This document shows positions 1-64,000 of a stretch of 64,000 nt of DNA, piece by piece. The stretch is taken from NCBI GenBank assembly GCA_035310985.1, contig DATGDH010000139.1, positions 95,214 to 159,213 on the forward strand, read 5' to 3'. The translations under genes were made by a program, and so were the position numbers. The stretch is from Burkholderiales bacterium (GTDB lineage Bacteria; Pseudomonadota; Gammaproteobacteria; Burkholderiales; SG8-39). The notes under the pieces are model-generated. The model made no database searches. It was not told the origin of the DNA and was given only the letters and a program-made list of their open reading frames with translations. The stretch's first letter is position 1. Each line of letters starts with the position of its first letter.

Positions 1-590
1 GCTTGAGCGAACTCGCTACCGTTCGGCTGCGTTGCGAAAGCGGCGGCTACGACGTGCTGCCGGCTAACCGCGAACTCGCGGGCGCCGAGGTCGAACTCGT
101 CGGCATCGAACGGCGCGAGTTACGCCTCAAGGAGGCGCTCGCTGGCATTAGCGCCGATTACGATTACATCCTGATCGATTGCCCACCTTCACTATCCCTG
201 CTGACCATCAACGGATTGGTGGCGGCGGACGCGGTGCTGATCCCGATGCAGTGCGAGTACTACGCGCTCGAGGGACTGTCCGACCTGGTCGGCACCATCA
301 AGCGGGTACGCGCCCATCTCAACCCAGGGCTCGAGATTGCGGGATTGCTGCGCACTATGTACGACCCGCGTAACACGCTCTCGCTACAGGTATCGCAGCA
401 ACTGGAATCGCACTTCGGGGACAAGGTCTATCAGACGCTCGTGCCCCGCAACGTGCGACTCGCCGAGGCGCCGAGCTACGGCGTGCCGGCCGTCGTTTGG
501 GACAAGACCTCGAAGGGCGCCCAGGCCTACATCGCGCTGGCAGAGGAAATTTTGACGCGCGGCAAAGGCGCATTGCCCGCTGCGGCATAG
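1..590 (+). CDS. parA: ParA/Soj chromosome-partitioning ATPase, 5'-truncated by the window edge (reading frame starts at nt 3)
   Basis: ORF runs off the left edge. It contains the ParA-type core ...YDYILIDCPPSLSLLTINGLVAADAVLIPMQCEYYALEGL... and lies directly upstream of parB. Confidence 0.9.
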   Translation, partial: LSELATVRLRCESGGYDVLPANRELAGAEVELVGIERRELRLKEALAGISADYDYILIDCPPSLSLLTINGLVAADAVLIPMQCEYYALEGLSDLVGTIKRVRAHLNPGLEIAGLLRTMYDPRNTLSLQVSQQLESHFGDKVYQTLVPRNVRLAEAPSYGVPAVVWDKTSKGAQAYIALAEEILTRGKGALPAAA

Positions 591-606
591 AGCGAATGGA
601 ATAGTC

Positions 607-1443
607 ATGATCAAGCAAAAGGGACTGGGACGTGGGCTCGACGCGCTGCTTGGCGGAGACGAGCCGCCGCGCGAGGCGCTCACGACACTGCCCGTGGGCC
701 GCATCCGGCCCGGAAAATACCAGCCGCGCACGAAGATGGACCAGGAAGCTCTTGCCGAGCTGGCCTCGTCCATAAAGTCTCAGGGCCTGATGCAGCCCCT
801 GCTGGTGCGCCCGGTAGCGCGCGACCGCTATGAGCTGATCGCCGGCGAGCGGCGCTGGCGCGCCGCGCAAATGGCCGGGCTGGACGAGGTCCCGGCACTG
901 GTGCGCGATGTACCGGACGAAGCTGCACTCGCGATGGCACTGATCGAAAATATCCAGCGCGAAAACCTGAACCCCATGGAGGAAGCATCGGGGCTGCAGC
1001 GGCTCATCGATGAGTTCAAGATGTCCCACGAGCAGGCGGCCGATGCCGTTGGACGCTCGCGCAGCGCCACGACCAACCTCTTGCGCTTGCTAAAGCTCAC
1101 AAAGCCGGTTCAGGCGATGGTCATGGAAGGCGTGCTGGATATGGGTCATGCGCGCGCCATCCTCGCGCTGGACGGAGCGCGCCAAGTGGAGGCTGCCAAG
1201 CGCATTGCGGCTCGCGGTCTTTCAGTGCGCGAGGCCGAAGCGCTGGTCGCCAGGATGTTGCGTGGCAACGCGTCCCATCAACGGCGGAAGCCTGACCGCG
1301 ATATGGCTCGACTCGAAGAAGAGGTCTCGGAGCGGCTCGGCACGACGGTCGAGATACGCCCTGGTAGAAAGGGGAGCGGCAAGCTGATCCTGCACTACTC
1401 CGGCCTTGATCACTTGGACCTGCTGCTGCGCAAGCTGCGCTGA
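607..1443 (+). CDS. parB: ParB/Spo0J chromosome-partitioning protein
   Basis: 278 aa with GLGRGLDALL, the ParB box LIAGERRWRAA and ENIQRENLNP, and an HTH region. Starts 17 nt after parA. Confidence 0.93.
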   Translation: MIKQKGLGRGLDALLGGDEPPREALTTLPVGRIRPGKYQPRTKMDQEALAELASSIKSQGLMQPLLVRPVARDRYELIAGERRWRAAQMAGLDEVPALVRDVPDEAALAMALIENIQRENLNPMEEASGLQRLIDEFKMSHEQAADAVGRSRSATTNLLRLLKLTKPVQAMVMEGVLDMGHARAILALDGARQVEAAKRIAARGLSVREAEALVARMLRGNASHQRRKPDRDMARLEEEVSERLGTTVEIRPGRKGSGKLILHYSGLDHLDLLLRKLR

Positions 1444-1484
1444 GGCGCAAGGCCTTGCGGTTGGTGCGTCGCAACACATTGACC

Positions 1485-1913
1485 ATGAAACACCTTGAAC
1501 GCTATACTCCGCGCGCTTTGCTGGGCGCGGGGGAATTCAAAGCCATGCTTCGCAGCCTGGGCAAGCCGATCCGTACGGTTCTGCGCTGGCAATTGGTGGT
1601 CACCGCAGCGCTGACTCTGGTCGCTGCGGTCACGGCGGGTACGCACGGCGCGTTCTCCGCCGCCCTCGGCGGCATGGTCAGTGTATGCGCTGGGCTCGCC
1701 TCCGGGACCGTTGCTTCGTTGGGGAAGACTGAGTCTGCAGGGGGAGTCCTGATCGGGGCGCTGCGCGCCGAAGGCATCAAGATAGGCCTGATCGTAATCC
1801 TCCTGTGGCTCGTGCTGGCGGCGTACAAGAATGTCGTAACGCTCGCCTTTCTCGGGACGTTCATGGTGACGGCCCTGATCTTCTCCCTGGCAGTAGTAGT
1901 ACGCGACCATTAG
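1485..1913 (+). CDS. atpI: ATP synthase protein I (AtpI), small hydrophobic protein
   Basis: Hydrophobic ~140 aa ORF immediately upstream of atpB. The ATG at 1485 is preferred over the TTG at 1455 listed in the ORF track. Confidence 0.7.
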   Translation: MKHLERYTPRALLGAGEFKAMLRSLGKPIRTVLRWQLVVTAALTLVAAVTAGTHGAFSAALGGMVSVCAGLASGTVASLGKTESAGGVLIGALRAEGIKIGLIVILLWLVLAAYKNVVTLAFLGTFMVTALIFSLAVVVRDH

Positions 1914-1948
1914 GTCGCACCGACTGGAAATTGGAACACCGTTAAGTC

Positions 1949-3072
<1,124 letters not shown>

Positions 3073-3112
3073 GGCGCGACGCGACCTATTCATCAGGAAG
3101 TGAGGGGCAGGC

Positions 3113-3583
3113 ATGAACATCAATCTGAGCTTGTTTACACAAGCCGCCGCCTTCGCGCTGTTCATCTGGTTCACGGTCCGGTTCGTGTGGCCGCCGTTGC
3201 TGCGCGCCATCGAGAATCGGCAGAAGCAGATCGCCGACGGCCTCGCGGCCGGCGAAGAGGGCAGGAAGTCGCTCGAAGTATCGACGCGGGAAGCCGGGCA
3301 GATGATCGACGAAGCGCGTGGACGCGCGGCCGACATCGTTGCCCAGGCGGAGAAGCGCGCCGCCCAGCTTGTCGAGGAAGCGAAGCTCGCGGCTCGAGAC
3401 GAGGGCGCGCGCGAGAAGGCCGCCGCCAAGGCTGACATTCAGCAAGAGGTTTCACGCGCCCGCGAGCAACTGCGCGAGCAGGTCGCGTCGCTTGCGGTCG
3501 CAGGCGCCGAGAAGATCCTCCGCCGCGAAGTCGACGCGAAGGCGCACGCACAGTTGCTCGAGTCGATCAAGGCGCAGCTCTGA
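3113..3583 (+). CDS. atpF: F0F1 ATP synthase subunit b
   Basis: 156 aa with an N-terminal TM helix followed by a long charged coiled-coil. Operon position fits. Confidence 0.9.
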
Positions 3584-3586
3584 TCC

Positions 3587-4123
3587 ATGGCCGAGCGCAG
3601 CACCATCGCAAGGCCCTACGCGGAAGCGGCATTCAGGATCGCCGACTCGTCGGGCAAGCTCCCTGAGTGGGCCACCATGCTCGCCGCGCTGGCAGAGGTC
3701 GCCGGTAACGAGAGGGTGAAAGCGGCCATTGCCGACCCGAACATGCCGGCGCCGAAAGTGGCGGGCGTGTTCATTTCAGTTCTGGCCGGAAAGCTGACTG
3801 GCGAGGCGGAAAACCTGGTGCGCGTGCTGGCGGAGAACAACCGTCTTGAGTTGCTCCCCGAGATCAGGGTCCAGTTCGAGGCGCTCAAGGACGAGCGCGA
3901 AGGCGTGGTCGAAGCCCGGATTATTTCTGCGTTCGAGCTCGACGCCGCGCAGCGATCTGAACTTACCAAGCTGCTCGAAAAGCACACAGGCCGTAAGGTC
4001 CGCACCCGCGTGGACCTGGACAAGGAGCTGATCGGCGGCGTACGTGTCGTGATCGGCGACAAGGTTATTGACGCTTCCGTGCGCGCGCAGCTCAGCACGC
4101 TCGAGAGCGCATTGAAGGTTTAG
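3587..4123 (+). CDS. atpH: F0F1 ATP synthase subunit delta
   Basis: 178 aa, [11 protein letters not shown]-terminus and ...[19 protein letters not shown]-terminus typical of OSCP/delta. Confidence 0.9.
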
Positions 4124-4139
4124 CAACCAAGGAATCCTC

Positions 4140-5687
4140 ATGCAACTCAATCCGTCCGAAATATCGGAACTGATCAAGAGCCGGATTCAGAAACTCGATA
4201 CCGGCGCGGAGATGCGCACGGAGGGCACCGTCGTGTCGGTGACCGATGGCATTTGCCGCGTTCACGGCCTGTCCGACGTCATGCAGGGCGAGATGCTCGC
4301 GTTCCCGAATGATACTTTCGGCCTGGCGCTCAACCTGGAACGCGACTCTGTCGGCGCGGTGATTCTCGGCGAATACGAGCACATCACCGAGGGCGACACG
4401 GTCAAGTGCACGAGCAACATCCTGTCCGTCCCGGTCGGTCCCGAGCTGCTCGGGCGGGTAGTGAACTCGCTCGGCCAGCCGATCGACGGCAAAGGCCCGG
4501 TCAACGCGAAGGAGACCGACGTCATCGAGAAGGTCGCGCCCGGTGTGATCTGGAGGAAGTCGGTGTCGCAACCGGTACAGACGGGACTCAAGGCGATCGA
4601 CGCCATGGTGCCGGTTGGCCGCGGGCAGCGCGAGCTGATCATCGGTGACCGCCAGACGGGCAAGACGGCGGTTGCGGTTGACACCATCATTAATCAGAAG
4701 GGCAAGGACCTGATCTGCGTATACGTCGCGATCGGCCAGAAGGCTTCGACAATCGCCAACGTGGTGCGCAAGCTGGAGGAGCACAGCGCGATGGACTACA
4801 CCATCGTGGTCGCCGCCTCCGCCTCGGAATCGGCGGCGATGCAGTACATTGCACCGTATTCCGGCTGCACCATGGGAGAGTACTTCCGCGATCGCGGCCA
4901 GGACGCGCTGATCATCTACGACGACCTGACCAAGCAGGCTTGGGCGTATCGCCAGGTGTCGCTGCTGTTGCGCCGCCCGCCAGGGCGCGAAGCCTACCCC
5001 GGCGACGTGTTCTACCTGCACAGCCGCCTGCTCGAGCGCGCCGCGCGCGTCAACGAAGAGTATGTCGAGCGCTTCACCCAGGGCAAGGTCAAGGGCAAGA
5101 CCGGCTCGCTTACTGCGCTGCCGATCATCGAGACGCAAGCGGGTGACGTGACGGCGTTCGTGCCGACGAACGTCATCTCGATCACCGACGGCCAGATCTT
5201 CCTCGAGTCGGATTTGTTCAACGCCGGCATCCGGCCCGCGATTAACGCCGGCATCTCGGTGTCGCGCGTGGGCGGCGCGGCGCAGACCAAGATCATGAAG
5301 CGACGCGACACCGGCGGCGGCGTGCGCCTGGCGCTCGCGCAGTACCGGGAGCTTGCGGCCTTCGCGCAGTTCGCCTCGGATCTGGACGAAGCCACGCGCA
5401 AGCAGCTCGAGCGCGGGCGCATGGTCACCGAGCTCATGAAGCAGCCGCAGTACTCCCCGCTTCAGGTCTGGGAGATGGCGCTGACGCTGTTCGGCGTGAA
5501 CAACGCGTATTTCGACGATATCGATGTGAAAAAGGCGCTGGCCGCCGAAAAGTCGATGCGCGACTACATCAAGGACAAATACGCGGATCTCGTCAAGCGT
5601 ATGGAGGACAAGAAGGACCTCTCGGCGGATGACGAGAAGGCACTCAAGGCCGCGATCGAGGACTGGAAGAAGAGCGGCTCGTTCTGA
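4140..5687 (+). CDS. atpA: F0F1 ATP synthase subunit alpha
   Basis: 515 aa with Walker A GDRQTGKT and conserved alpha-subunit blocks. Confidence 0.97.
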
Positions 5688-5702
5688 GCCGGGGTAAGCG
5701 CC

Positions 5703-6566
5703 ATGCCGGGCACCAAAGAGATCCGCAACAAGATCAAGAGTGTGCAGAACACTCGGAAGATCACGAAGGCGATGGAGATGGTTTCCGCCTCGAAGATGCG
5801 CAAGGCGCAGGAGCGCATGCGCGCGACGCGACCCTATGGCGAGAAGATCCGCAATGTGGCAGCGCACATCAGCCATGCCAATCCGGAATACCGCCACCCG
5901 TTCCTGGTGGACCGCGATTCGGTCAAGGGTGTTGGCCTGATCCTGATCACCACCGACAAGGGGCTTTGCGGTGGCCTGAACACGAACGTCCAGCGCATGG
6001 TGCTGAACAGCTACAAGGAATGGCAGGCGCAGGGCGAGCAGATCGAGGTCTGTTGCCTCGGGAACAAGGGGCTGGGGTTCATGCAGCGCCTGGGGGCCAA
6101 CGTCGTCTCGCAGGTCGTGCAGCTCGGCGACCGGCCTCAGCTCGACAAGCTGATCGGCGCGGTGCGGGTGATGCTCGAAGGCTTCGTCGAGAATCGCTTC
6201 GATAGGGTCATGATCGCGTACACGCGCTTCATAAACACCATGAAGCAGGAGCCGATCATGGAGCAGCTCCTGCCGCTTACTGGCGAGCGTATGGGCGCGC
6301 CCGAGGGCGCTTGGGACTACCTGTACGAGCCGGAGGCGCAGAGCGTCCTCGAGCAGGTGCTGACGCGCTATATCGAGTGGATCATCGTGCAGGCACTGGC
6401 GGAGAACATGGCCTCGGAGCAGTCGGCGCGTATGGTGGCGATGAAGGCCGCGTCCGACAACGCGGATACTCTGATCGACGAGCTCACGCTGATTTACAAC
6501 AAGAACCGGCAGGCCGGGATCACCAAGGAACTCTCGGAAATCGTCGGCGGCGCGGCCGCCGTATAA
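5703..6566 (+). CDS. atpG: F0F1 ATP synthase subunit gamma
   Basis: 287 aa, [33 protein letters not shown]-terminus and [16 protein letters not shown]-terminus. Confidence 0.95.
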
Positions 6567-6582
6567 CGGAATCTAGGTCTAG

Positions 6583-8022
<1,440 letters not shown>

Positions 8023-8033
8023 GGCGAGCCCAC

Positions 8034-8453
8034 ATGGCAACCACCATGCACGTCGACGTGGTCAGCGCGGAAGAATCCATCTTCTCGGGCGAGGCGGAGT
8101 TCGTCGTGCTGCCGGGCGAGGTCGGCGAGCTCGGCGTCTATCCGCGCCACACACCGCTCATCACCCGCATCCGTCCCGGCACGGTGCGCATCACTCCGGC
8201 GGGCGGTGGGGAGGAGCAGCTGATCTTCGTAGCCGGCGGCATTCTCGAGATCCAGCCGCAGGTCGTGACGGTGCTCGCCGACACCGCGATACGCGGCCAC
8301 GACCTGGACGAGGCCAAGGCGCTTGAAGCGCAGAAGCGCGCGGCCGAAGCGCGCGCGAAGGCGAAGGACAAGGAAGAAGTCGCGACCGTCGAAGCCGAGC
8401 TCTCGATGCTCGCGGCGCAGCTCGCGGCGATCCGCAAGCTGCGCAGGAAGTGA
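8034..8453 (+). CDS. atpC: F0F1 ATP synthase subunit epsilon
   Basis: 139 aa, [42 protein letters not shown]. The internal ATG at 8034 of track ORF 7941..8453 lies just after the atpD stop. Confidence 0.93.
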
Positions 8454-11509: not shown

Positions 11510-12712
11510 ATGGCAATCGGAATCCGCGACAAGGTGGTGATCCTCGGCATGGGCTGCTCGAAGTTCGGAGAGCGCTGGGACCGCAATGCCGAGGACCTGA
11601 TGGTCGAAGCCTTCGAAGAAGGCTTGAAGGACGCCGGCATCGAGCGCAACCAGATCGAGGCGGCGTGGTTCGGCACCGCGATCGAGGAACAGCACGTCGG
11701 CAAGTCGGGCGTGCCTCTCGCGATGACGCTGCGCCTGCCCTATATCCCGGTGACGCGCGTCGAGAACTATTGCGCCACCGGCACCGAGGCATTCCGTGGC
11801 GCGGTGTATGCCGTGGCCTCCGGCGCGGTCGACATCGCGCTTGCGCTCGGCGTGGAAAAGCTCAAGGACACCGGCTACGGAGGCCTGCCGCAGCGCGGCC
11901 GCGGCGGCCTGAACAACTTCTTCTGGGCCAACATTTCGGCGCCCGGCTCGTTCGCCCAGCTCGCCGCGGCCTACCGCGCCAAGCACCGTGTCGACCCGAA
12001 AGACCTGAAACGCGCCATGGCGCACATCTCGGTGAAGAGTCACGACAACGGCGCGAAGAACCCGAAGGCGCACCTGAGGAATCGCATTACCGAGGAGGAC
12101 GTGCTGAACGCGCCGATGATCGCCGATCCGCTCGGGCTGTACGACTGCTGCGGCGTCTCGGACGGCTCGGCCTGCGCGATCGTCACCACGCCCGACATCG
12201 CGCGCGGCCTCGGCAAGAAAGACCTCGTTGCGGTGAAGGCGCTGCAGCTCGCGGTCTCGAACGGCCAGGAGGTGCAATACGACGAGTGGGACGGCTCGTA
12301 TTTCGCCACCACGCGCGTGGCCGCCAAGCGCGCTTACCGCGAGGCCGGCATCGACGACCCGAGAAAGCGCATCTCGATGTTCGACGTGCACGACTGCTTC
12401 TCGGTCACTGAGCTGGTGACCATGGAAGACCTCGGGATCTCCGACGAGGGCAAGGCGATCATGGACGTGCTGGACGGCTTCTACGACGCTTCCGGCAAGA
12501 TCCCGTGCCAGATCGATGGCGGGCTGAAATGCTTCGGCCATCCGATCGGCGCCTCGGGCCTGCGCATGCTCTACGAGATGTACCTGCAGCTTTCGGGCCG
12601 CGCCGGCGAGCGCCAGCGGTCCGAGCCGGTGCTCGGCATGACGCACAACCTCGGCGGCTTCCCGAGCCAAAACGTTTCATCGGTCACGATCGTCGGCAGC
12701 TACGGCGCCTGA
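11510..12712 (+). CDS. Thiolase-like protein, SCP-x / lipid-transfer (Ltp) type
   Basis: 400 aa, ILGMGCSKFGERW, nucleophile context VENYCATGTEAF, C-terminal GHPIGASG and NLGG. GGAGG SD upstream of the ATG at 11510. Confidence 0.85.
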   Translation: MAIGIRDKVVILGMGCSKFGERWDRNAEDLMVEAFEEGLKDAGIERNQIEAAWFGTAIEEQHVGKSGVPLAMTLRLPYIPVTRVENYCATGTEAFRGAVYAVASGAVDIALALGVEKLKDTGYGGLPQRGRGGLNNFFWANISAPGSFAQLAAAYRAKHRVDPKDLKRAMAHISVKSHDNGAKNPKAHLRNRITEEDVLNAPMIADPLGLYDCCGVSDGSACAIVTTPDIARGLGKKDLVAVKALQLAVSNGQEVQYDEWDGSYFATTRVAAKRAYREAGIDDPRKRISMFDVHDCFSVTELVTMEDLGISDEGKAIMDVLDGFYDASGKIPCQIDGGLKCFGHPIGASGLRMLYEMYLQLSGRAGERQRSEPVLGMTHNLGGFPSQNVSSVTIVGSYGA

Positions 12713-12745
12713 GCGCCTGCCGAAGCGCGCGAGCGGGGATCGGCC

Positions 12746-13414
12746 CTAGAGGAGGTGGCTAGTCCGATCCGCGCGCTCGCCGCCGCGGTCCTTGTGTTCG
12801 TCGATGGGGTAAGCCCACACCACGTAACGCCCGGGGCCGCCCGCGCGCAGCGCGTCGAAGGGAAAACAGGTCACGAGCGTCAGCCTGGCGGGGCCCTCCT
12901 GCGCTGCGACCCAGGCGTCGCTTCGGTCGAGTACGCGCATCCGGCGCACCGTATACGCGTGGCGCGCGCCGTCGGGCGTTTGGACGATGATCTTCGTTCC
13001 AAGCGCGAGCTTGCGCAGGAACGCGAAGTGCGTGTCGCGATGCCCGCTGATCACGCTGTTCCCGGACGCCCCGGGCAGCGCGGTTCCGGCGAGGTGCCCT
13101 GGGCCGAATGCCATCGCCACGCCGTCGGCACCCTCGAGGACGTAGCGCTCGATGCCGAGCGACGGTACCGACAGGCGCGCGACCGGCCAGGTGTCGGCCC
13201 AGGGCCAGGGCCTCGCGTGCGTCTCGCCCGCGAGCGTTCGCTGCCAGGCTTGCGCGATGAGTGCTTGAGCGATCCAGGCCTTGGCCTGGATCCACGCGCC
13301 GCGCGCGAACTGCCAGCCGCCCGTTGCGACGAGCAACGCGACGAGGACAAGACGCAGGCGCCCGACGCTTTTGCTGCGAGTCCCTGCATTCGATTCGGGC
13401 CAGGCACATTCCAC
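12746..13414 (-). CDS. Sortase of the proteobacterial dedicated sortase system type
   Basis: N-terminal TM (LRLVLVALLVATGGW), catalytic His context VISGHRDTHF, Cys TLVTCFP, Arg GRYVVWA. There is no in-frame ATG. The GTG at 13414 is the first plausible start downstream of the upstream gene's stop (13441). The start is uncertain. Confidence 0.8.
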   Translation of the reverse strand: MECAWPESNAGTRSKSVGRLRLVLVALLVATGGWQFARGAWIQAKAWIAQALIAQAWQRTLAGETHARPWPWADTWPVARLSVPSLGIERYVLEGADGVAMAFGPGHLAGTALPGASGNSVISGHRDTHFAFLRKLALGTKIIVQTPDGARHAYTVRRMRVLDRSDAWVAAQEGPARLTLVTCFPFDALRAGGPGRYVVWAYPIDEHKDRGGERADRTSHLL

Positions 13415-13440
13415 GCCCAGGCACAGCTCCTGGTCGCGTT

Positions 13441-15489
13441 TCACCCAAACCTCCGGCGCCAGCCGACCAAAATTGCGGCGAGCAGGAGAAACAGCATCCC
13501 GCTCAACAGCGCGAAACGGCTGTCGGTGCCGGTCTGCGGCAGTTCGCCGAACACCTTGTCGTACTCCCAGCCTTCCGGCAGGTTGGTCGGCAGATCGGCG
13601 CGCGCGAGCGGCGCGTCCGCGGGCCGCGCCGACGCGCGATCGACCGCGACGAAGCTCGTGTAGCGGGTCACCAGGCGGTGTGCGCGCGCGAGCGCGATCA
13701 CCTGCTCGCGCACCGCGTCGGGAGGCGCACCTTCGCGCAGTGAGTCCATGAGCGAGGCCACCTTGGCGCGCGCCCAGAGCGAATCGATGCCGCTGCCCTG
13801 CGCGCCAGCCGCGAGCGGCACACGCGCTTCCCACACCCGCCCCGCGCGCACTCCGCTCACGCGCAGCTCGCCTTCGAGGCGTTCGAGGGAAGCGCTCACT
13901 ACGAGCGGCTCGCCGGAATAGAGGTCGGGCACGCGCGCGGGCCAGGCTTCGACGTGCGCCGCCTCGGGCCATTGCAGCGTGATCCCCTTCAGCACGGGCG
14001 CTTCGAGCTTGGTGAAGAGCTCGGACATCCTCGCGCCGACCTCGTCGACGCGGCCGATATAGGTGAACGTGCCGCGCCCGAGCTCCGCCGCCTTGCGCAT
14101 GAAGTGGCTGTTTGGCGCCGAGCCGATTCCCACGGTAAAGAGGCGCGAGTCGCCCAGCCGCGCCTGGATCAGGCGAAACAGCTCCTCTTCGTTGCCGACC
14201 GCGCCGTCGGTGAGGAAGACCACCTGTCTCACGCCGGAGCCCGCATCGCCGCCGTTCAAGGCGAGCTTCAGGGCGGAGGCCATCTCGGTCCCGCCGCCGG
14301 CCTCGAGGCTTCGCACCCAGCCGATCGCGCGCCGCACTTGGGCGGTCGCGGCCGGGCGAGCCTCGGCGAACAGCGCCCTCGCGGTCGAGTTGAATTCGAT
14401 GACGTTGAAGCGGTCTTGCGGTTTCAGGCGTTCGAGCGCGAGCGCGAGCGCCTCGCGCGCCTGGCGGATCGACGCGCCGGCCATCGAGCCCGAGGTGTCG
14501 AGCACGAAGATCACTTCGCGCGGAAGCGGCGCCTCGTGCGCCGCCGCCGATGGCATCAGCATCAGCAGCGCGTAGTGGCGCCCGCCCTGCGACTGCGTGA
14601 ACCAGGCGAGCCGGGGCGCCGCGTCGGGGCGCGGCGCCCAGCGCAGCACGAAATCGCGATTGGCCGGAGTGCTGCCTTCGGCGAGCGTGATTTCGCGCTG
14701 CCCCTCGCCGAGCGTTTTGACGTCCACCTGGTGGTAGGGGCTCGAAACCTCGGCCAGGGGCATGCCTGCATCCAGCTCGACGCGGATCGAAACCGGGTTG
14801 GCGGGCGCAGGCCCCTCCTGCGGACGCAGCACGACGGGCGTGATGCGCGCCGCGTCCGTCACGCCGTGCGGGATATAGCGCGGTCCGACCACCATTGGAA
14901 AGCGCAGCGAAAAGCGGCCGTCCCGGTAGCGCAGTGTCTCCAGATATTCGAGTTCGACCACAACGGTATCGTGCGGACCGATGTTCGCCACGCTGGTGGT
15001 GAATATGTTGGGCCTTTCCTGGTCGAGCAGCGCCGCACGGCTGCCCTGCGCCCGCGCCGCTGCGTAGGTCTTCTGGGCGGCCGCGCGCTCTTGGATCTCT
15101 CCTTCTATGGTGCGCTCGCCGATGCGCAGGCGCAGGCGGTCGACGGCCGAGTTCTCGGGCAGCGGGAACACGTAGACGCCCTCGTACCAGCCCTCACCAG
15201 GATTGCGGAAGGTCTGCACCACGCGCGCGCGCACCACCATGCCCGAGACCTGGAACGCCACCGCAGTCGACTGCAGCGGCGCTTCGAGCGCATCGCCGCC
15301 GGCACGCGGGCGCAGGAGCAGTGTGCCCTCGCTCGGCGCATCGGCTGCCCGCGCCTGGCTCGCGAACAGCAGCGTCACGCCGGCGAGCGCAATGGCGGTC
15401 ACGATGCCCAAGGCGGCGGCGAGCGCCACTGAGGCGATGAGATCGAGCGCGATCCGACCGGCTAGGGTTCTTTTTGCGGGCTTGCTCAC
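13441..15489 (-). CDS. Sortase target: secreted VIT-domain plus von Willebrand factor A-domain protein with a C-terminal LPQTG sorting signal
   Basis: VIT-like N-terminal region, vWA MIDAS VIFVLDTSGSMAG, and C-terminus LPQTG-TDSRFALLSGMLFLLLAAILVGW-RRRFG. The GTG at 15489 is preceded by GGAGG (4-nt spacer) and is preferred over the ATG at 15588. Confidence 0.85.
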   Translation of the reverse strand: MSKPAKRTLAGRIALDLIASVALAAALGIVTAIALAGVTLLFASQARAADAPSEGTLLLRPRAGGDALEAPLQSTAVAFQVSGMVVRARVVQTFRNPGEGWYEGVYVFPLPENSAVDRLRLRIGERTIEGEIQERAAAQKTYAAARAQGSRAALLDQERPNIFTTSVANIGPHDTVVVELEYLETLRYRDGRFSLRFPMVVGPRYIPHGVTDAARITPVVLRPQEGPAPANPVSIRVELDAGMPLAEVSSPYHQVDVKTLGEGQREITLAEGSTPANRDFVLRWAPRPDAAPRLAWFTQSQGGRHYALLMLMPSAAAHEAPLPREVIFVLDTSGSMAGASIRQAREALALALERLKPQDRFNVIEFNSTARALFAEARPAATAQVRRAIGWVRSLEAGGGTEMASALKLALNGGDAGSGVRQVVFLTDGAVGNEEELFRLIQARLGDSRLFTVGIGSAPNSHFMRKAAELGRGTFTYIGRVDEVGARMSELFTKLEAPVLKGITLQWPEAAHVEAWPARVPDLYSGEPLVVSASLERLEGELRVSGVRAGRVWEARVPLAAGAQGSGIDSLWARAKVASLMDSLREGAPPDAVREQVIALARAHRLVTRYTSFVAVDRASARPADAPLARADLPTNLPEGWEYDKVFGELPQTGTDSRFALLSGMLFLLLAAILVGWRRRFG
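13444..13542 (-). other. C-terminal cell-wall-type sorting signal (LPQTG motif at 13528..13542, hydrophobic span, RRRFG tail)
   Basis: Direct translation of the last 33 codons of the vWA protein. Confidence 0.8.
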
Positions 15490-15580
15490 GGCGCCTCCAT
15501 CGTTGGTGCGTGCTGGAAGCCGATTACAGGCGCGCGTCGGGGCGGGCGCGCGGCGCGCAAAGGGCGCACCGCTGAGCAAT

Positions 15581-15598
15581 TGTGGCAATCCTGTGGCA
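15581..15598. promoter_or_regulatory. Tandem direct repeat TGTGGCA-N4-TGTGGCA (11-bp phasing) in the divergent promoter region; candidate OmpR-family response-regulator site
   Basis: TGTGGCA at 15581-15587 and 15592-15598. A TATATT -10-like hexamer lies at 15626-15631, 7 nt before the RR ATG. Confidence 0.35.
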
Positions 15599-15638
15599 GC
15601 GGGCGGAGAACGCGCAGCGATCGGCTATATTCGATGTC

Positions 15639-16328
15639 ATGTCACGCCGCATCGCCATCGTCGAGGACGACCCTGCCATACGCGCCAACTACGCCGCCGC
15701 GCTCGGCCGCTACGGCTACGAGGTGGCCACGTACGGCGGCCGCGCCGAGGCGCTCGCCGCGATGAAGTCGCGCCTACCCGACCTCGCCATCATCGACATT
15801 GGCCTGGGGGAGGACGCGGACGGCGGCTTCGCGCTGTGCCGCGAGTTGCGCGCGCTCTCTGCCGCGCTGCCGATCATCTTCCTGACCGCGCGCGACAGCG
15901 ACTTCGACGTGGTCGCCGGCCTGCGTCTGGGTGCCGACGACTATCTCACCAAGGACGTGAGCTTGCCGCACCTCATGGCGCGCATCGCGGCGCTGTTTCG
16001 CCGCGCCGATCTCGCGCGCGAGCCGCCTGCGGCCGAGGAGCGCTTCGAGCGCGGCGCGCTCGCGCTCGACCTGAAGCGCTTCAGCGTAAGCTGGCAGGGT
16101 CGACCCGTCGCGCTCACGCTGACGGAGTTCTGGATGGTGCACGCGCTCGCCAAGTTCCCGGGCCACGTCAAGAATCGCGACCAGCTGATGCGCGAAGCAA
16201 ACTTGGTCGTCGACGACGCCACGGTCACTTCGCACGTGAAGCGCATACGGCACAAGTTCCTCGCCGTCGATGCCGCGTTCGACCGAATCGACACGGTCTA
16301 CGGCATGGGCTACCGCTGGAAGGCCTGA
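15639..16328 (+). CDS. OmpR/PhoB-family response regulator (sortase-system associated)
   Basis: 229 aa with a receiver domain (RIAIVEDDP...DLAIIDIGL) and a winged-helix C-terminus (...RIDTVYGMGYRWK). Confidence 0.9.
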   Translation: MSRRIAIVEDDPAIRANYAAALGRYGYEVATYGGRAEALAAMKSRLPDLAIIDIGLGEDADGGFALCRELRALSAALPIIFLTARDSDFDVVAGLRLGADDYLTKDVSLPHLMARIAALFRRADLAREPPAAEERFERGALALDLKRFSVSWQGRPVALTLTEFWMVHALAKFPGHVKNRDQLMREANLVVDDATVTSHVKRIRHKFLAVDAAFDRIDTVYGMGYRWKA

Positions 16329-16335
16329 GGCTGCA

Positions 16336-17982
16336 ATGCGCGTGCGCATTACCCTGCGGGTCAAGCTCGCGCTGGTCTCGCTCGCCATGCTGGCGCTGCC
16401 CTGGGCAGGATGGCTCTACGTCGGCGAGATGGAGCGCTTCCTGCTCGAGGGACAGGAGCGTGCGCTGCTCGCCACCGCGCGGGCGGTCGCGACCGCGCTG
16501 CACGACCGCCCGCAGCTCCTTGCCGCGGTTCCGGAGCGCGACGATGCGCTGCGACGCGAGGCCGAGGCCGAGCTGCAGCGGCTGACGCAGCAAAGCGGGG
16601 GCGCCGGCGGCACCGAGGCGGACGTACCGCTGGCGCGCGAGGATGCGGTCGCGGCGGGCCCCGCGCGGGAAGAGATCGCCGCCATCCTGCGCGGAGTTGA
16701 GCGTGCCAGCTCGCGCATCTGGGTGGTGAACCGGCGCTACCAGGTGCTCGCGCTCGCCGGCAGTCTGAGGCAGCCCGTACTGCCGGGGCAGGACGGTCTA
16801 CTGCGCTCCTGGTGGCACCGGGCAATCGGCTGGCTGATCCCGGGGCCGACGGAGGACTTCGCCGAAGCTTTGCCCGACGACGTGCTCGCCACCAGTCGCG
16901 ACATCACGGCCGCCCTGCAGGGAACGCCGGGCACGCGCATGCGCCGCACCCCGGACGGCCGCGCCGTGGTCCTCTCCTCCGCCTATCCCATCTGGTCCGG
17001 CGACGAGGTCGCCGGCGCGGTGGTCGCCGAGGAGACGACCAACCCGATCGTCTCGCTGCGCAGCGCTGCGCTCGAGCGCCTGCTCGCGCTCACGCTGGCG
17101 GCGTTCGCGGGCGTCGGTGCGCTGCTGATCGCCTACGCGACGCGGCTGTCGCAGCGTATCCGCCGGCTGCGCGACGAAGCCGAGTCGGCGATCGACGCGC
17201 GCGGCCGCATTACGCGCCTCGCGGCCGGCTCCGATGCCGGCGACGAGATCGGCGACCTGTCGCGCAGCTTCTCGGCCATGCTGGCGCGGCTCGCGCAGCA
17301 CCATGCGTATCTCGAGAGCATGGCCGATCGTCTTTCGCACGAGCTGCGCACGCCGATCGCGGTGGTGCGCTCGTCGCTGGAGAACCTGCAGCTCGCCGCC
17401 GGGCCCGCCGAGCGGCGCCTGTACGTCGAGCGCGCCGAGCAAGGGCTCGCGCGGCTGAACACCATCCTGCAACGCATGACGGAAGCCTCGCGGCTGGAGC
17501 AGAGCCTGCGCGCGTCCGCGCGCGAGCGCTACGACCTGGTGCCGGTGGTACGCGGTTGCGTCGAGGGTTACCGCCTGGCGTACCCGCAGGCGCGCTTCGC
17601 GCTCGAGCTGCCCGAGGAGCGAATGGATGTCGAGGGCTCGCCGGACCTGGCCGCGCAGCTGCTCGACAAGCTGGTGGAGAACGCCGTGGATTTCGCGACC
17701 CCGGGCAGCCCGATCCACGTCTCGCTGGAAGAGGAACGGGGTATGGCGCTGCTCAAGGTGATCGACCGCGGACCCCTGCTGCCGCCCGAGACGCAGGGCC
17801 GGCTGTTCGATTCGATGATCTCGCTGCGCGGCGAGCGGCGCGGCGCCGTGCCGCACCTCGGCCTGGGGCTGTACGTGGCACGCCTGATCGCCGAGTTCCA
17901 CGGCGGCACGATCGCGGCGGACAACCTGCCCGCCGGCGACGGCGTCGCGATCACGGTGCGCCTGCCGATTGCGTGGCGCTAG
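16336..17982 (+). CDS. Sensor histidine kinase (sortase-system associated)
   Basis: 548 aa with an N-terminal TM, a periplasmic region, a second TM, H-box DRLSHELRTPIAVV, and N/G boxes (KLVENAVDF, GLGLYVA). Starts 7 nt after the RR stop. Confidence 0.88.
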   Translation: MRVRITLRVKLALVSLAMLALPWAGWLYVGEMERFLLEGQERALLATARAVATALHDRPQLLAAVPERDDALRREAEAELQRLTQQSGGAGGTEADVPLAREDAVAAGPAREEIAAILRGVERASSRIWVVNRRYQVLALAGSLRQPVLPGQDGLLRSWWHRAIGWLIPGPTEDFAEALPDDVLATSRDITAALQGTPGTRMRRTPDGRAVVLSSAYPIWSGDEVAGAVVAEETTNPIVSLRSAALERLLALTLAAFAGVGALLIAYATRLSQRIRRLRDEAESAIDARGRITRLAAGSDAGDEIGDLSRSFSAMLARLAQHHAYLESMADRLSHELRTPIAVVRSSLENLQLAAGPAERRLYVERAEQGLARLNTILQRMTEASRLEQSLRASARERYDLVPVVRGCVEGYRLAYPQARFALELPEERMDVEGSPDLAAQLLDKLVENAVDFATPGSPIHVSLEEERGMALLKVIDRGPLLPPETQGRLFDSMISLRGERRGAVPHLGLGLYVARLIAEFHGGTIAADNLPAGDGVAITVRLPIAWR

Positions 17983-18008
17983 AATCCGCGCTTTGCCCGA
18001 CCCCAGCG

Positions 18009-18797
18009 ATGAAGCCGCTCGCCGCGCTAAGCAATCCGCGTCGCCTCCGAGGACTGCTGTTCGATATCGACGACACGCTGACCACGGAAGGCCGGCTGAC
18101 CGCGGAAGCCTACGGCGCGCTGCAGGACCTGAAGCAGGCGGGACGCGTGGTCGTGCCGATCACCGGGCGCCCGGCCGGCTGGTGCGATCACATCGCGCGC
18201 ATGTGGCCGGTGGACGCCGTGGTCGGAGAGAACGGCGCGTTCTATTTCTGGTACGACGCTGCGGCCGGCAAGCTGCGGCGCCGCTACCGGGACGCTGAAG
18301 AGGTGCGCGTCGCGAACCGCGCGCGCTTCGACGCGATCGCACGGCGCATCGTCTCCGCCGTGCCGGGCTGCGCGCTCGCAGCGGACCAGAACTACCGCGA
18401 TACGGATCTGGCGATCGACTTCTGCGAGGACGTGCCCGCCTTGCCGCTCGAAGCTGCCGAACGCATCGTTGCGCTGATGCGCGAGGCGGGCCTGCGCGCC
18501 AAGATCAGCTCGATCCACGTGAACGGCTGGTTCGGCGACTACGACAAGCTCGCCACCACGCGAACACTGTTTGCCGAGCGCTTCGGCACCGACCTGGTCG
18601 CCGCCCAGAGCGAGTTCGCGTTTGCGGGCGACTCCCCCAACGACGCGCCGATGTTCGCGTTCTTCGAGCATTCGATCGGCGTGGCGAACGTCGCGCGCTT
18701 TGCCGGGCATCTCGCCGCGGCGCCGAAATTCGTGACGCGGGCCGCGGCCGGCGCAGGCTTTGTCGAGCTCGTCGCCCACCTGTTGGAGCGCAAGTGA
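18009..18797 (+). CDS. HAD-superfamily (IIB-like) phosphatase/hydrolase
   Basis: 262 aa with DxDxT motif LLFDIDDTLT, ITGRP, and C-terminal GDSPNDAPMF. Confidence 0.8.
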   Translation: MKPLAALSNPRRLRGLLFDIDDTLTTEGRLTAEAYGALQDLKQAGRVVVPITGRPAGWCDHIARMWPVDAVVGENGAFYFWYDAAAGKLRRRYRDAEEVRVANRARFDAIARRIVSAVPGCALAADQNYRDTDLAIDFCEDVPALPLEAAERIVALMREAGLRAKISSIHVNGWFGDYDKLATTRTLFAERFGTDLVAAQSEFAFAGDSPNDAPMFAFFEHSIGVANVARFAGHLAAAPKFVTRAAAGAGFVELVAHLLERK

Positions 18798-30929: not shown

Positions 30930-32066
30930 ATGAATCCGCTCCTTTTCGCGCCGATCACCCTTCGCAGAGTAACCGCGCGCAACAGGGCCGTCATCTCACC
31001 GATGTGCACCTATTCGGCGGCGGACGGCATGGCGCAGGACTGGCACCTGGTGCACCTGGGCAAGTTCGCCCTGGGCGGCGCCGGCATCGTGTTCGTCGAG
31101 GCGACCGCAGTCGAGGCGCGCGGCCGCATCACGCACGGCTGCCTCGGCATCTGGTCCGATGCGCACGCGCGCGCGCTCGGGCGTATCGCGCCGTTTCTCA
31201 AGGCGCACGGCGCGCTGCCCGCGATCCAGCTCGCGCACGCGGGACGAAAGGCGAGCATGCAGCGTCCCTGGTTTGGCAACGGCCCCCTCGGACCCGAGGA
31301 CGCGGCGCGCGGCGACCGGTCCTGGCAGATCGTCGGCCCGACCGCCGAGCCCGCGGCGGAAGGCTGGCTCGCGCCGCACGCCATGACGCGCGTCGACATC
31401 GACGAGGTCGTCGGCGCCTTCGCCGCCGCGGCGCGGCGCGCGCACGCAGCGGGCTTCGATATCGTCGAGCTGCACGGCGCGCACGGTTACCTGATCCACA
31501 GCTTCCTTTCGCCGTTGTCCAACACCCGCAGCGACGGCTACGGCGGCGCGCTCGGCGGGCGAATGCGCCTCGCGCTCGAGGTGGTCGACGCGGTGCGCGC
31601 GGCCTGGCCGGCGGACAAGCCCCTCTTCTTTCGCATCTCGTCGGTCGACGGCGTCGGCGGCCCCGGCTGGAAGATCGAGGACTCGATCGAGCTCGCGCGC
31701 GCGCTGAAGGCGCATGGCGTCGACGTGATCGACTGTTCCTCGGGCGGTATCTCGGGCCCGGTGACTTCGGCCATGGTGCCGCGCGAGCTCGGCTTTCAGG
31801 TGCCGTATGCGGCCGCCGTGCGCCGCGAGGCGGCCATCGCCACGCAGGCGGTCGGGCTGATCCTCGATGGGCCGCAGGCCGAGGCGATCCTGCAATCCGG
31901 AGCGGCTGACCTCGTCGCGGTGGCGCGCGAGGCGCTGGTCGATCCGTTTTGGGCGCATCACGCGGCGCGCGCGCTCGGCGTCGACGCCGATTTCGGCGGC
32001 TGGCCGGAACAGTACGGCTGGTGGCTGAAACGCCGTGCGAAGCTGCTCGCGGCCATCGGCCGCTAG
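30930..32066 (+). CDS. NADH:flavin oxidoreductase, Old Yellow Enzyme family (YqjM/NamA-like)
   Basis: 378 aa, LFAPITLRRVTARNRAVISPMCTYSA...HLGKFALGGAG...IQLAHAGRKAS...ELHGAHGYLIHSFLSP. Confidence 0.9.
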   Translation: MNPLLFAPITLRRVTARNRAVISPMCTYSAADGMAQDWHLVHLGKFALGGAGIVFVEATAVEARGRITHGCLGIWSDAHARALGRIAPFLKAHGALPAIQLAHAGRKASMQRPWFGNGPLGPEDAARGDRSWQIVGPTAEPAAEGWLAPHAMTRVDIDEVVGAFAAAARRAHAAGFDIVELHGAHGYLIHSFLSPLSNTRSDGYGGALGGRMRLALEVVDAVRAAWPADKPLFFRISSVDGVGGPGWKIEDSIELARALKAHGVDVIDCSSGGISGPVTSAMVPRELGFQVPYAAAVRREAAIATQAVGLILDGPQAEAILQSGAADLVAVAREALVDPFWAHHAARALGVDADFGGWPEQYGWWLKRRAKLLAAIGR

Positions 32067-32151
32067 CTACGAACCAAAGTCTTCGGTTCACTCTGCATCG
32101 TTATCGGTCTCATACAATAAGCGGATTTAAGTACTCCCTGATCAACTTTGT

Positions 32152-32484
32152 ATGAGCTGGGCAGAATTTGTTCTTTGGCTAACCTACGGTTTTTCGTTCG
32201 GCGCAGTAATACTTGTAAATCTGATTCTCTATTCGACGATTCTTCGTCCGCCGGTTAAAGGCGCGTCGCCGACGGAGCAAATACGCACCTTTGTATTGCG
32301 CCTTCCATTCGCTGTGGTTGGTATCGTCAGTCTTATGCCTCTACGGCCTCTTCGTCTTGCTTATGACCAGCATGAATTGGCGGGAGCCATCATTTTCCTT
32401 TGCTTCGTGGTGTTGACGGTTGTTATTGGTCTGAAAGTCTTGCTTCCGCGCTTCGTTACCATCAAGACAATGACCGACGACTAA
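32152..32484 (+). CDS. Hypothetical small membrane protein (3 predicted TM helices) in the low-GC islet
   Basis: 110-aa ORF with three hydrophobic ~20-aa spans and AT-rich codon usage unlike the flanks. I recognise no family. Confidence 0.45.
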   Translation: MSWAEFVLWLTYGFSFGAVILVNLILYSTILRPPVKGASPTEQIRTFVLRLPFAVVGIVSLMPLRPLRLAYDQHELAGAIIFLCFVVLTVVIGLKVLLPRFVTIKTMTDD

Positions 32485-32513
32485 CGCACCCTCATCTGCG
32501 CGAGAAACTGTAC

Positions 32514-32801
32514 TTGGAGCAATTGCTATTGGCTGTTGGTTATGGCTGGATGACTGGTAGCGCGCTTTTCTTGTTGAGTCTCTTCGTAAGGTTTCCTCGG
32601 GTGAATGGTCGGAGTGGATGGTTGTACCGACTGGTTCTTCTGATACCAGTCCCCGTCGTCCTCGTTGGGCTGGCTTTTATCGGAGACATCCTGTTCAAGT
32701 ACAAACGGATGGGAGTGGGCACTACCTATGTAGAAGCGGGTCTCGCTGCGGTTGTTGTATTCGCGCTTTGTTCGCGTGCACTACGAAATCGACAAAGGTG
32801 A
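32514..32801 (+). CDS. Hypothetical small membrane protein (3 predicted TM helices) in the low-GC islet
   Basis: The 3' part of track ORF 32400..32801 lies downstream of the preceding ORF's stop. The TTG at 32514 keeps the first hydrophobic helix intact (alternative ATG at 32550). The start is uncertain. Confidence 0.35.
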   Translation: MEQLLLAVGYGWMTGSALFLLSLFVRFPRVNGRSGWLYRLVLLIPVPVVLVGLAFIGDILFKYKRMGVGTTYVEAGLAAVVVFALCSRALRNRQR

Positions 32802-32976
32802 ATATTTGCTTCATTCGGGGAGCCATCTCGTTCGTTGAATTGCGGCACGCCTGCGTAGCCAACTCGTAGCCTCGCAGGATTTGGCAACGCTGCCATTCGA
32901 ATTTGCATCGCTACATCGAGAGATGGCAGGCGTCGCACGTCGTTAACTTGACAAGCAGCAACTCTCACTTCCGCGC

Positions 32977-33561
32977 CTAAAAGCCCGAGCCGGGCTGCTT
33001 CAGGAACTCGAGCTCTTCGGGCGTGCTCCGTCGCCCGAGTGCTTCGTTGCGGTGGGGAAAGCGGCCGAAGCGCGCGATGATCTCGTGGTGCCGCGCTGCG
33101 TACTGGTACACGTCATTCGTTTCCTCGAATTCCTCGAGCGGCCGCATCAGGCCGAGGCACAGCAACTGGTCCTCCAGCGCCTCGCTGTGCTCGAACGGCA
33201 GGTAGGTGAACATCCGCTCGACAGGCAGCATTTCCCGGTCGTAGCCCATTGCGAGCGCGTGGCGCGCCGCGTCGAGCGCGCGACCATCGCTCGCGAAGGC
33301 GCGTGCGCTGCCGCGAAACATGTTGCGCGGAAACTGGTCGAGCAGCACGATGAGCGCGAGGCAGTCGCCGGACTCGTCCTGCCAGCGCGCTAGGTCTCCG
33401 TGCGCGGCTGCCTCGTACAATGCGAGGAAGCGCTCGCGGATCGCGGCGTCGAACGCCGCGTCCTTGCTGAACCATTCCTTGCGCCGCTTGCCGTACTCGC
33501 TTTTGTTGCCGAACCAGAAGCTCAAGACCTGGCCGGTGCGAGGGTCTTTTGTGGGTCGCAT
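32977..33561 (-). CDS. DUF924-family protein
   Basis: [11 protein letters not shown] and [15 protein letters not shown] signatures. The start at 33561 is preferred because 33609 would overlap the divergent gene's start. Confidence 0.8.
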
Positions 33562-33601
33562 CGTCGAATGCTGCAATAATTCGCCGCCCGGAGCATATGC
33601 C

Positions 33602-35623
<2,022 letters not shown>

Positions 35624-46883: not shown

Positions 46884-46936
46884 TTACCGTTAGACGATGT
46901 TAATCGTCTCCCGCTTCTCCTCCCTGAGCGGGTGCC

Positions 46937-57100: not shown

Positions 57101-57258
57101 CCTGGCAACTCGGCGCTGACCTGGATCGTGGGGAAATCCACGTTCGGCAGCGAGCTCACCGGCAGCAGCCGGTACGCCGCGATCCCAAAAATCAGGATGC
57201 CGACCATGACCAGCACCGTCATCACCGGCCGGCGCACGAAGAGCGCGGACAGGTTCAC
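54130..57258 (-). CDS. RND efflux transporter permease subunit (HAE1, MdtB/MdtC/AcrB-like)
   Basis: 1042 aa from the GTG at 57258 ([17 protein letters not shown]...), forming a GTGA overlap with the MFP stop. 12-TM RND architecture. The upstream 92 codons of the track ORF are not RND-like. Confidence 0.93.
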
Positions 57259-62613: not shown

Positions 62614-62782
62614 GGGAGTTAGCCCGAAATCGCGGGCCTAGGCACCGGACGCGAGAGAGAGGGCATTATAGGGGTTCTGGCCCTGTGGAAAATTCACTAG
62701 ACACTAGCTAGGCTTGTTGCTAGCATTTAACGCAATTTCTACGTATTGCGCCTAACACGCCGGAGCGCAAGGGAAAATAACG

Positions 62783-63859: not shown

Positions 63860-64000
63860 GCTCGATTCGCATCAACCTGCTCCCGCACCGCGACGAGCGA
63901 CGCAAGCGCGCGCGCACCCATTTCGCGGTGCTCGGCGCGATGACGTTTGTGCTCGGCCTGGTCATTGTCGGAGCCGTGCATATCGTGAACGCGCAGCGCA
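63856..64000 (+). CDS. pilN: Type IV pilus assembly protein PilN, 3'-truncated by the window edge
   Basis: The ATG at 63856 overlaps the pilM stop (ATGA). Translation MSSIRINLLPHRDERRKRARTHFAVLGAMTFVLGLVIVGAVH matches the PilN N-terminus (INLLP motif plus TM). Confidence 0.8.
   Translation, partial: MSSIRINLLPHRDERRKRARTHFAVLGAMTFVLGLVIVGAVHIVNAQR

Follow-up and report, generated by a model that had tools for sequence, protein, structure and literature searches.

A class GN sortase, its VIT-vWA target and a divergent two-component system in an uncultured Burkholderiales bacterium: a normal member of a known, biochemically unsolved system

The role of sortases in bacteria that possess an outer membrane has been an open question ever since such genes came to notice in the early 2000s, and the question is raised again by a locus in the genome of an uncultured Burkholderiales bacterium. 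The locus occupies positions 12746..17982 of the 64,000-nucleotide stretch of DNA analyzed here (hereafter, the window; contig DATGDH010000139.1 of the assembly GCA_035310985.1, positions 95,214 to 159,213 of the forward strand) and consists of four open reading frames (ORFs), a sortase and its target, or cargo, on the minus strand, and a response regulator and a histidine kinase on the plus strand. Judging from the profile matches, it is essentially certain that this is a complete, real copy of the catalogued one-sortase/one-target class GN system of Gram-negative (diderm) bacteria, the definition of which comes from TIGRFAMs/NCBIfam. The matches to the curated models are specific and far beyond chance, and the locus has no feature outside the known range of the family, save for a minority variant of the sorting motif. 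The system itself is already known, and the locus is already annotated under these family names in GenBank; the four ORFs match the gene calls (232, 682, 229 and 548 amino acids) of contig JBLNGB010000075.1 of GCA_050264335.1, a Burkholderiales metagenome-assembled genome (MAG). The locus is a normal member of a known, biochemically unsolved system in an uncultured organism. As for what this system does, the most likely function, by analogy with the characterized sortases and the Shewanella systems discussed below, would be stress-induced transpeptidation of the cargo onto the meso-diaminopimelate of peptidoglycan, a reading to which we give about an even chance.

The identity of the components comes from the profile searches that were suggested in a preliminary description of the window, made from the letters alone. 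These searches place the sortase, the target and the regulator above the equivalog cut-offs of their NCBIfam families, whereas the kinase has the expected best model but stays below its cut-off. The sortase (232 amino acids; 12746..13444, minus strand) scores 215.8 bits against TIGR03784 (cut-off 158.25), with positions 2-174 of the 174 in the profile covered, and contains the Pfam Sortase domain (E = 3.4e-30). The target (682 amino acids; 13441..15489, minus strand; Pfam VIT and VWA) scores 751.7 bits against TIGR03788 (cut-off 551.65), and the OmpR/PhoB-type response regulator, the PdsR/PghR ortholog (229 amino acids; 15639..16328, plus strand; Pfam Response_reg and Trans_reg_C), scores 374.5 bits against TIGR03787 (cut-off 335.7). 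For the sensor histidine kinase of the short PdsS/PghK type (548 amino acids; 16336..17982, plus strand; HAMP, HisKA with H335, HATPase_c), TIGR03785 is the best model by far, with 518.8 bits against a cut-off of 612.2, and the position of the gene is syntenic; the best stretch is confined to positions 259-703 of the 703 in the profile because a CBM9-like module is missing; the full-length kinase of another locus, L053, is likewise under this cut-off, with 539.8 bits. The divergently transcribed OmpR-type regulator and histidine kinase of the preliminary description are thus both present, with Pfam domains that agree. The gap between the regulator and the target is 149 base pairs (bp) long, without an intervening gene, and the 64-kb window contains a single sortase, a single VIT-vWA target and a single ORF with a C-terminal signal of this kind.

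The sortase was initially thought to start 26 nucleotides downstream of the target, at an in-frame GTG at 13414 (~222 amino acids), but a start at GTG 13444, which overlaps the TGA of the target (GTGA, 4 nucleotides) and yields 232 amino acids, is more likely, because GGAGG lies 5 nucleotides upstream of it, the longer form and P0121, named ‘class GN sortase' at NCBI, are identical from end to end, and the relatives align from residues 1-4 onward. Translation of the target and the sortase appears to be coupled through this overlap. The protein consists of an N-terminal membrane-anchor helix and a catalytic domain with H135, C193 and R206. The sequence contexts of the three residues that had been picked out in the preliminary description, GHRDTHF (residue 134), VTCFP (191) and GRYVVW (205), are all there, and its expectation that the small ORF would match sortase models and keep the catalytic cysteine was borne out by TIGR03784 and by the presence of C193 in the alignment. 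That alignment, of 103 diverse homologs, shows no variation at R206 and conservation of 90% or more at H135 and C193, and likewise in a family-specific PWPWADTWP block (residues 79-87) that immediately precedes the first strand. AlphaFold2 modeling from the single sequence gave an unusable result (mean predicted local distance difference test, pLDDT, of 46.8), so that the 103-sequence alignment was used instead; the resulting model is confident (mean pLDDT 89.8) and consists of a long N-terminal helix followed by a sortase barrel.

The relationship of this enzyme to the characterized sortases is the first clue to its chemistry. A Foldseek search with the model retrieves sortases only, with the pilus-type class C among the top matches, and in the profile search against PDB, the best match is SrtD of Bacillus anthracis (2LN7, E = 8.9e-24), with class C clearly behind. 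Among the NCBIfam models, those of class D are second-best, with 87.3 bits for NF033746 (cut-off 165) and 94 bits for NF058671 (cut-off 140). By the criterion of profile similarity, class D is the nearest characterized class, yet the sortase is not a class D member; an independent predictor, SortPred, also puts proteobacterial sortases in class D. The class D sortases of Firmicutes (SrtD/SrtC of B. anthracis, 2LN7; SrtD of Clostridium perfringens, 4D70) recognize LPxTA[ST] in their substrates, which they join to the diaminopimelate cross-bridge; they share with the window sortase the GHRDT-F and TCYPFD active-site contexts, and the LPxTAT motif of the class GN family is similar to LPxTA[ST]. 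Class GN differs from class D in having its own PWPWADTWP motif, diderm hosts, a single adjacent substrate and, in this clade, often a glycine at P1. In two much longer proteins that represent their clusters, P0345 (805 amino acids) and P0362 (860 amino acids), a class GN sortase domain is located at the C-terminus (613-803 and 676-855, respectively); these may be target-sortase fusions or gene-calling read-throughs.

The target, the translation of which starts from a GTG with GGAGG 4 nucleotides upstream, begins with a signal/anchor (hydrophobic residues 8-46, followed by ARA/AD), continues with a VIT domain (72-182) and a vWA domain (325-475; matches to VWA_3, VWA and VWA_2), and ends in a sorting signal (13444..13542, minus strand). 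The sequence and the hydropathy scan resolve this signal into LPQTGT (650-655), a hydrophobic helix (656-679) and RRRFG, and the C-terminal end reads ...ELPQTGTDSRFALLSGMLFLLLAAILVGWRRRFG. Thus, all the elements of the 682-residue protein that were listed in the preliminary description (VIT, vWA, DTSGS, LPQTG, the hydrophobic span and the RRRFG tail) were found. The metal-binding motif of the metal ion-dependent adhesion site (MIDAS), DTSGS (residues 331-335 of the vWA domain; 14485..14499, minus strand), is complemented by T401 and D428. Across 60 full-length targets from different species, D331, S333, S335, T401 and D428 are 100% conserved and, therefore, ligand binding is under selection; this conservation argues for a conserved metal-dependent binding function of the cargo. 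The closest solved relatives are the VIT-vWA region of PARP4 (E = 3e-38), ITIH4 (E = 1.6e-28) and ITIH1, eukaryotic proteins in which, as in the target, VIT is followed by a vWA domain with a MIDAS site. In the heavy chains of inter-alpha-trypsin inhibitor (ITI), the C-terminus is the point of covalent attachment to chondroitin sulfate or hyaluronan, both of them glycan polymers. This attachment could be regarded as a functional parallel to the anchoring of the cargo, one that is suggestive only. The ITI heavy chains differ in that the bond is an ester formed by transesterification, not by thioacyl transpeptidation, in another cellular context and with no sortase involved.

Although the three-part architecture of the ‘classical' LPQTG signal of the preliminary description is present in the target, LPQTG itself is a minority form. 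In a survey in which each species was represented by one genome, at least 595 loci with a relative of the sortase were found, and the best 80 were examined as loci. The consensus of the family, taken from 69 species-level loci, is [L/F]PxTAT. The proline is present in 100% of the cases; at position 4, 51 loci have T, 15 have G and 3 have S; at position 5, 61 have A and 7 have G; and at position 6, 66 have T. The commonest forms are FPATAT, LPQTAT and LPKTAT. The 117 closest homologs with the motif in the tail are dominated by LPQGAT (47) and LPRGAT (41), followed by LPQGST (14) and LPQTGT (7), so that the LPQTG pentapeptide is found in about 6% of the close homologs (7/117) and in 4 of the 69 species-level loci. 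In the light of these alignments, the LPQTGT of the window is a minority variant that coincides by chance with the Gram-positive class A consensus. The preliminary description had counted on conservation of LPQTG among orthologs; taken literally, there is none, but P-x-x-[A/G]-T and the three-part signal are still conserved. What is kept across the family is the three-part signal with its proline, the small residue at position 5, the threonine at position 6 and a GW..(K)VFG block upstream.

These features of the cargo and of the enzyme bear on an alternative that we consider distinctly improbable, namely, that the sortase would only hydrolyze the signal and free the cargo from the inner membrane into the periplasm or the medium, or else would polymerize the cargo in a pilus-like manner. 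The pairing of one enzyme with one substrate and the presence of class C enzymes among the top Foldseek matches are compatible with this view, and sortases hydrolyze slowly when no nucleophile is available. However, none of the lysines is invariant among the 60 targets (the best, K494, is present in 87%) and nothing resembles a pilin motif, and the profile search places the enzyme nearest to class D rather than to class C; a dedicated cysteine transpeptidase with a conserved A-T at P1'-P2' would also be an elaborate route to plain release. For lack of an invariant lysine, pilus-like polymerization was rejected as the leading idea.

The organization of the loci narrows the choice of the acceptor. 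The best 80 loci span Beta-, Gamma- and Alphaproteobacteria as well as Nitrospirota, Acidobacteriota and Gemmatimonadota, so that the label ‘proteobacterial', which the preliminary description attached to the system, is too narrow. The target gene directly precedes the sortase gene in nearly all of the 80 loci. Architectures could be counted for the 57 loci with enough flanking DNA: a two-component system with target and sortase in 27, the same with pdsO in 8, and no adjacent two-component system in 22. The architecture of the window (a divergent two-component system and a target-sortase pair, with no PdsO) is the commonest in the sample. Neither PdsO nor the two-component system is an obligatory component. 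The arrangement originally proposed was right for the four genes, which match the described system, but that system includes a fifth gene, pdsO, which is absent here. There is no OmpA-like gene within 10 kb on either side of the locus, and a tblastn search of the window with eight PdsO proteins, three of which were checked against TIGR03789 and had it as their best model, yielded nothing significant. A match at 56854-56961 (E = 0.005) is spurious, being located inside an ORF of a resistance-nodulation-division (RND)-type efflux transporter (up to 1134 amino acids; 54130-57534, minus strand). In one betaproteobacterial MAG (locus L008, 8959-10606), the sortase lies directly beside a response regulator and a kinase, and no VIT-vWA target was detected between those genes or elsewhere in the 16-kb locus.

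The distribution of PdsO bears on the proposal that the cargo becomes joined to an envelope protein, either the OmpA-like PdsO or a Braun-type lipoprotein, to form a covalent bridge between the outer membrane and the peptidoglycan. Such a bridge is favored by the situation in Shewanella, where pdsO shares a transcript with the target and sortase genes and is the most strongly induced gene, and by the eight loci in which PdsO-type genes (TIGR03789) precede the target. However, the window has no pdsO, its one weak OmpA-like match, at 56.8 kb, being the one inside the RND transporter gene, and PdsO cannot be the general acceptor, because it is absent from 27 of the 35 loci linked to a two-component system and from all loci without one. 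We consider this bridge highly unlikely. The same absence, here and in the 27 loci, implies that the acceptor would have to be something universal.

A second line of evidence on function comes from the regulators. The loci of Shewanella, SO2192-SO2196 of S. oneidensis and pdsS/pdsR/pdsO of S. algae, encode a sortase, a target, a regulator and a kinase of the same NCBIfam families as the window, and share with it the divergent orientation of the two-component system relative to the sortase operon and the three-part sorting signal. In S. oneidensis, the PghK/PghR pair (SO2192/SO2193) is activated by peptidoglycan-targeting antibiotics and by the loss of PBP1a (2023 preprint). It switches on blaA and relV and, more than 17-fold, the divergent sortase operon of pdsO, a target gene of the ITI family and srtA, the gene of the ‘marine sortase' SrtA (SO2194-SO2196). 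In S. algae, the recurrent pdsS mutation G547W raises the transcripts of the sortase, the target and pdsO 126-, 388- and 799-fold, respectively. The statement in the preliminary description that the signal of the kinase had not been shown experimentally is no longer current, given that the Shewanella PghKR responds to peptidoglycan damage and that the S. algae pdsS mutation induces the operon. The window differs from Shewanella in lacking pdsO, in the shorter intergenic region (149 versus 232 bp) and in the kinase, which has 548 rather than 719 amino acids and no CBM9-like module; furthermore, the host here is an uncultured Burkholderiales MAG, and the window has no evident counterpart of the regulon members blaA and relV.

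The difference between the kinases is concentrated in the periplasmic domain. Sensing by PghK, with its periplasmic domain of 393 amino acids, needs residues of the CBM9-like periplasmic module (R177 and Y178). In the window kinase, the two transmembrane segments (about 3-29 and about 245-269) delimit a periplasmic domain of only about 215 amino acids. In MAFFT alignments with the long kinases of L033, L049 and L080, a charged, alanine-rich linker (residues about 68-122, ~55 amino acids; 16537..16701, plus strand) occupies the position where the long forms carry a beta-rich, CBM9-like beta-sandwich module of ~200 amino acids. The CBM9_1 model itself matched the long kinase of L049 weakly, but neither that of L053 nor the two short kinases. 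Kinase length follows the clade, with about 530-600 amino acids in beta-proteobacterial loci and about 675-750 in Gammaproteobacteria, and the Shewanella preprint (2023) reports that most beta-proteobacterial PghK homologs have no CBM9. Because the module is missing, the stimulus here may differ from that of the Shewanella PghK. The phospho-acceptor of the regulator is D53 within LAIIDIG, equivalent to D52 of PghR.

Comparison of the loci revealed a candidate binding site of this regulator in the divergent promoter region. The site is a direct repeat, TGCCACA-GGAT-TGCCACA, with an 11-bp period (15581..15598, minus strand), 92-109 nucleotides upstream of the GTG of the target and 41-58 nucleotides upstream of the ATG of the regulator; it reads TGCCACAGGATTGCCACA on the strand of the target, and this is the sole exact match within the 64-kb window. 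The exact pattern matched the three closest loci only and, therefore, a degenerate half-site pattern was used. The degenerate repeat GCCA[CT]-N5-6-GCCA[CT], always in the orientation of the target and with a period of 11 bp, sometimes 10, is present in 22 of the 36 regulator-target intergenic regions; its density is 2.46 per kb in these regions versus 0.014 per kb elsewhere in the same loci, a difference of ~170-fold. In the PdsO-type loci, the repeat lies upstream of pdsO, and a related direct repeat is found at this place in other gammaproteobacterial loci with the Shewanella-type PdsO architecture. A generic repeat finder applied to the intergenic region gave only two 7-nucleotide inverted pairs; the operator was found by comparing loci. 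OmpR/PhoB-type regulators bind direct repeats at helical periodicity. The repeat TGCCACA-N4-TGCCACA, which is new here, is thus a candidate operator that would be bound by the regulator. Of the 22 loci without an adjacent two-component system, only three, all beta-proteobacterial (L005, L007 and L010), have the repeat, which lies upstream of the target and takes the operator-like form GCCATC(C/T)T(C/G)T(T/C)GCCAC; control there would seem to be exerted in trans, by a regulator encoded at another site.

A sigma-70 promoter scan of 12500-18300 found no promoter. A -10-like TATATT (15626-15631, plus strand) is located 7 nucleotides before the regulator ATG at 15639, with no Shine-Dalgarno sequence, which suggests a leaderless regulator mRNA; GCTATA(T/G)T occurs at an equal distance from the regulator start in the beta-proteobacterial loci L002, L003, L006, L012, L015 and L022, with GGAG in its place in the gammaproteobacterial loci. 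TGTAAT at 15523-15528 (minus strand), about 34 nucleotides upstream of the target GTG, is a possible -10 element of the target-sortase operon, and CTGTAAT-like elements are also present in L002, L003, L033 and L053.

Taken together with the Shewanella data, these observations suggest the following course of events. The short PdsS-type kinase would sense envelope or cell-wall stress in the periplasm and phosphorylate PdsR on D53, and the phosphorylated regulator would bind TGCCACA-N4-TGCCACA and activate the target-sortase operon, and probably its own operon as well, as suggested by the comparative footprinting. The VIT-vWA protein would leave the cytoplasm through the Sec pathway and stay fixed in the inner membrane through its C-terminal helix and basic tail. 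By homology with other sortases, the membrane-anchored enzyme (Cys193, His135, Arg206) is predicted to cleave within LPQTGT, between T and G, with formation of a thioacyl intermediate. An amine would then resolve this intermediate, and the likeliest acceptor, as in the nearest characterized sortases (classes D and E), is the side chain of meso-diaminopimelate in lipid II or in peptidoglycan; it is favored because the enzyme and its motif are closest to those of class D, because an acceptor is needed where there is no PdsO, and because the Shewanella regulators sense peptidoglycan damage. The vWA protein with its MIDAS would end up in the periplasm, joined covalently to the sacculus, as one element of the response to cell-wall stress.

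The main rival, which we regard as unlikely, differs from this course in the last step: the thioacyl intermediate would be resolved by an amine of phosphatidylethanolamine, lipopolysaccharide or a glycolipid, and the cargo would then be displayed on the cell surface, in parallel to the rhombosortase/GlyGly-CTERM system. The rhombosortase/GlyGly-CTERM and exosortase/PEP-CTERM systems include VIT-vWA (‘vault-like') proteins of the same cargo family, which have the same succession of motif, helix and basic tail, and form many dedicated one-to-one enzyme-target gene pairs, although the enzymes are unrelated, an intramembrane serine protease or an exosortase rather than a cysteine transpeptidase. 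Indeed, the bacterial VIT-vWA family carries a GlyGly-CTERM, PEP-CTERM or sortase signal in different genomes (Haft 2011), and VesB, a protease and the only characterized GlyGly-CTERM product, undergoes cleavage, receives a moiety that contains glycerophosphoethanolamine and reaches the cell surface by way of the type II secretion system. An adhesin-like vWA domain with a fully conserved MIDAS would be more sensible outside the cell, too. Against lipid anchoring stand the lack of secretion genes within 10 kb on either side of the locus and the regulation by peptidoglycan damage in Shewanella, which fits a cell-wall role better. Moreover, to our knowledge, no sortase uses a lipid amine as the acceptor, and the nearest characterized enzymes, of classes D and E, use amines of the peptidoglycan cross-bridge.

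Several observations nevertheless weigh against anchoring to peptidoglycan. In agreement with the preliminary description, which held that the anchoring chemistry and the role of the cargo had not been described, no paper in the literature searched demonstrates the cleavage experimentally or defines the acceptor, the function of the cargo or the place where it ends up, and the 2023 Shewanella preprint states that the roles of sortases in Gram-negatives ‘remain unknown'. Deletion of SO2194-SO2196 in S. oneidensis left ampicillin resistance unchanged and, therefore, protection of the cell wall is hypothetical. Most of the close relatives have Gly instead of Thr at the presumed P1 (LPQGAT), which is unusual for a sortase and makes the scissile bond uncertain. 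Homologous VIT-vWA cargos elsewhere bear GlyGly-CTERM or PEP-CTERM, and the lipid-linked, surface-displayed VesB hints at a surface rather than a periplasmic destination. No adjacent two-component system is present in 22 of the 57 assessable loci, including all sampled Nitrospirota and Alphaproteobacteria, and the kinase of the window lacks the CBM9-like module that holds R177 and Y178, both required for PghK signaling. A bolder scenario, in which the class GN sortase would be unlike the characterized sortases, and would either patch the metal-dependent vWA protein covalently onto damaged peptidoglycan, for repair or bracing, or pass the cargo on to an amine of a lipid or glycolipid, with display on the surface, in this clade through cleavage of LPxGAT between G, a non-canonical P1 residue, and A and under a kinase that, having lost the glycan-binding CBM9 module, reads a signal other than that of PghK, seems to us a doubtful proposition.

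The family at stake is large: members were found in at least 595 species-level genomes, those of Nitrospirota and Acidobacteriota among them, and in Shewanella, the regulator is tied to beta-lactam responses. For the question of the acceptor, the window is no more tractable than the cultured Shewanella model. The gains are comparative: a motif, [L/F]PxTAT, often with Gly at P1; a system in which PdsO and the two-component system are optional; beta-proteobacterial kinases without the sensing module; and a candidate operator that can be used for defining the regulon.

The system sits among housekeeping genes, as indicated by its flanks and by the absence of signs of mobile elements within 10 kb. 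On one side (window about 1-8400; L001 14992-20699), there is an F-type ATP synthase operon beside acyl-CoA synthetase and thiolase-like genes, and on the other side, CoA-transferase, TauE and HAD-hydrolase genes. A search of the window for tRNA genes was negative, and the only RNA family match in its entire length is RF02837 of Rfam, anti-hemB (Burkholderia RNA 7), at 46907-46998 (plus strand; 80.1 bits versus the gathering score of 49.5). The G+C content is 0.65-0.72 over most of the window, about 0.62-0.64 near both ends, and as low as 0.586 in the 2-kb windows 32001-34000 and 62001-64000, the former of which spans a 210-amino-acid ORF (32977-33609, minus strand) and the start of a 767-amino-acid ORF.

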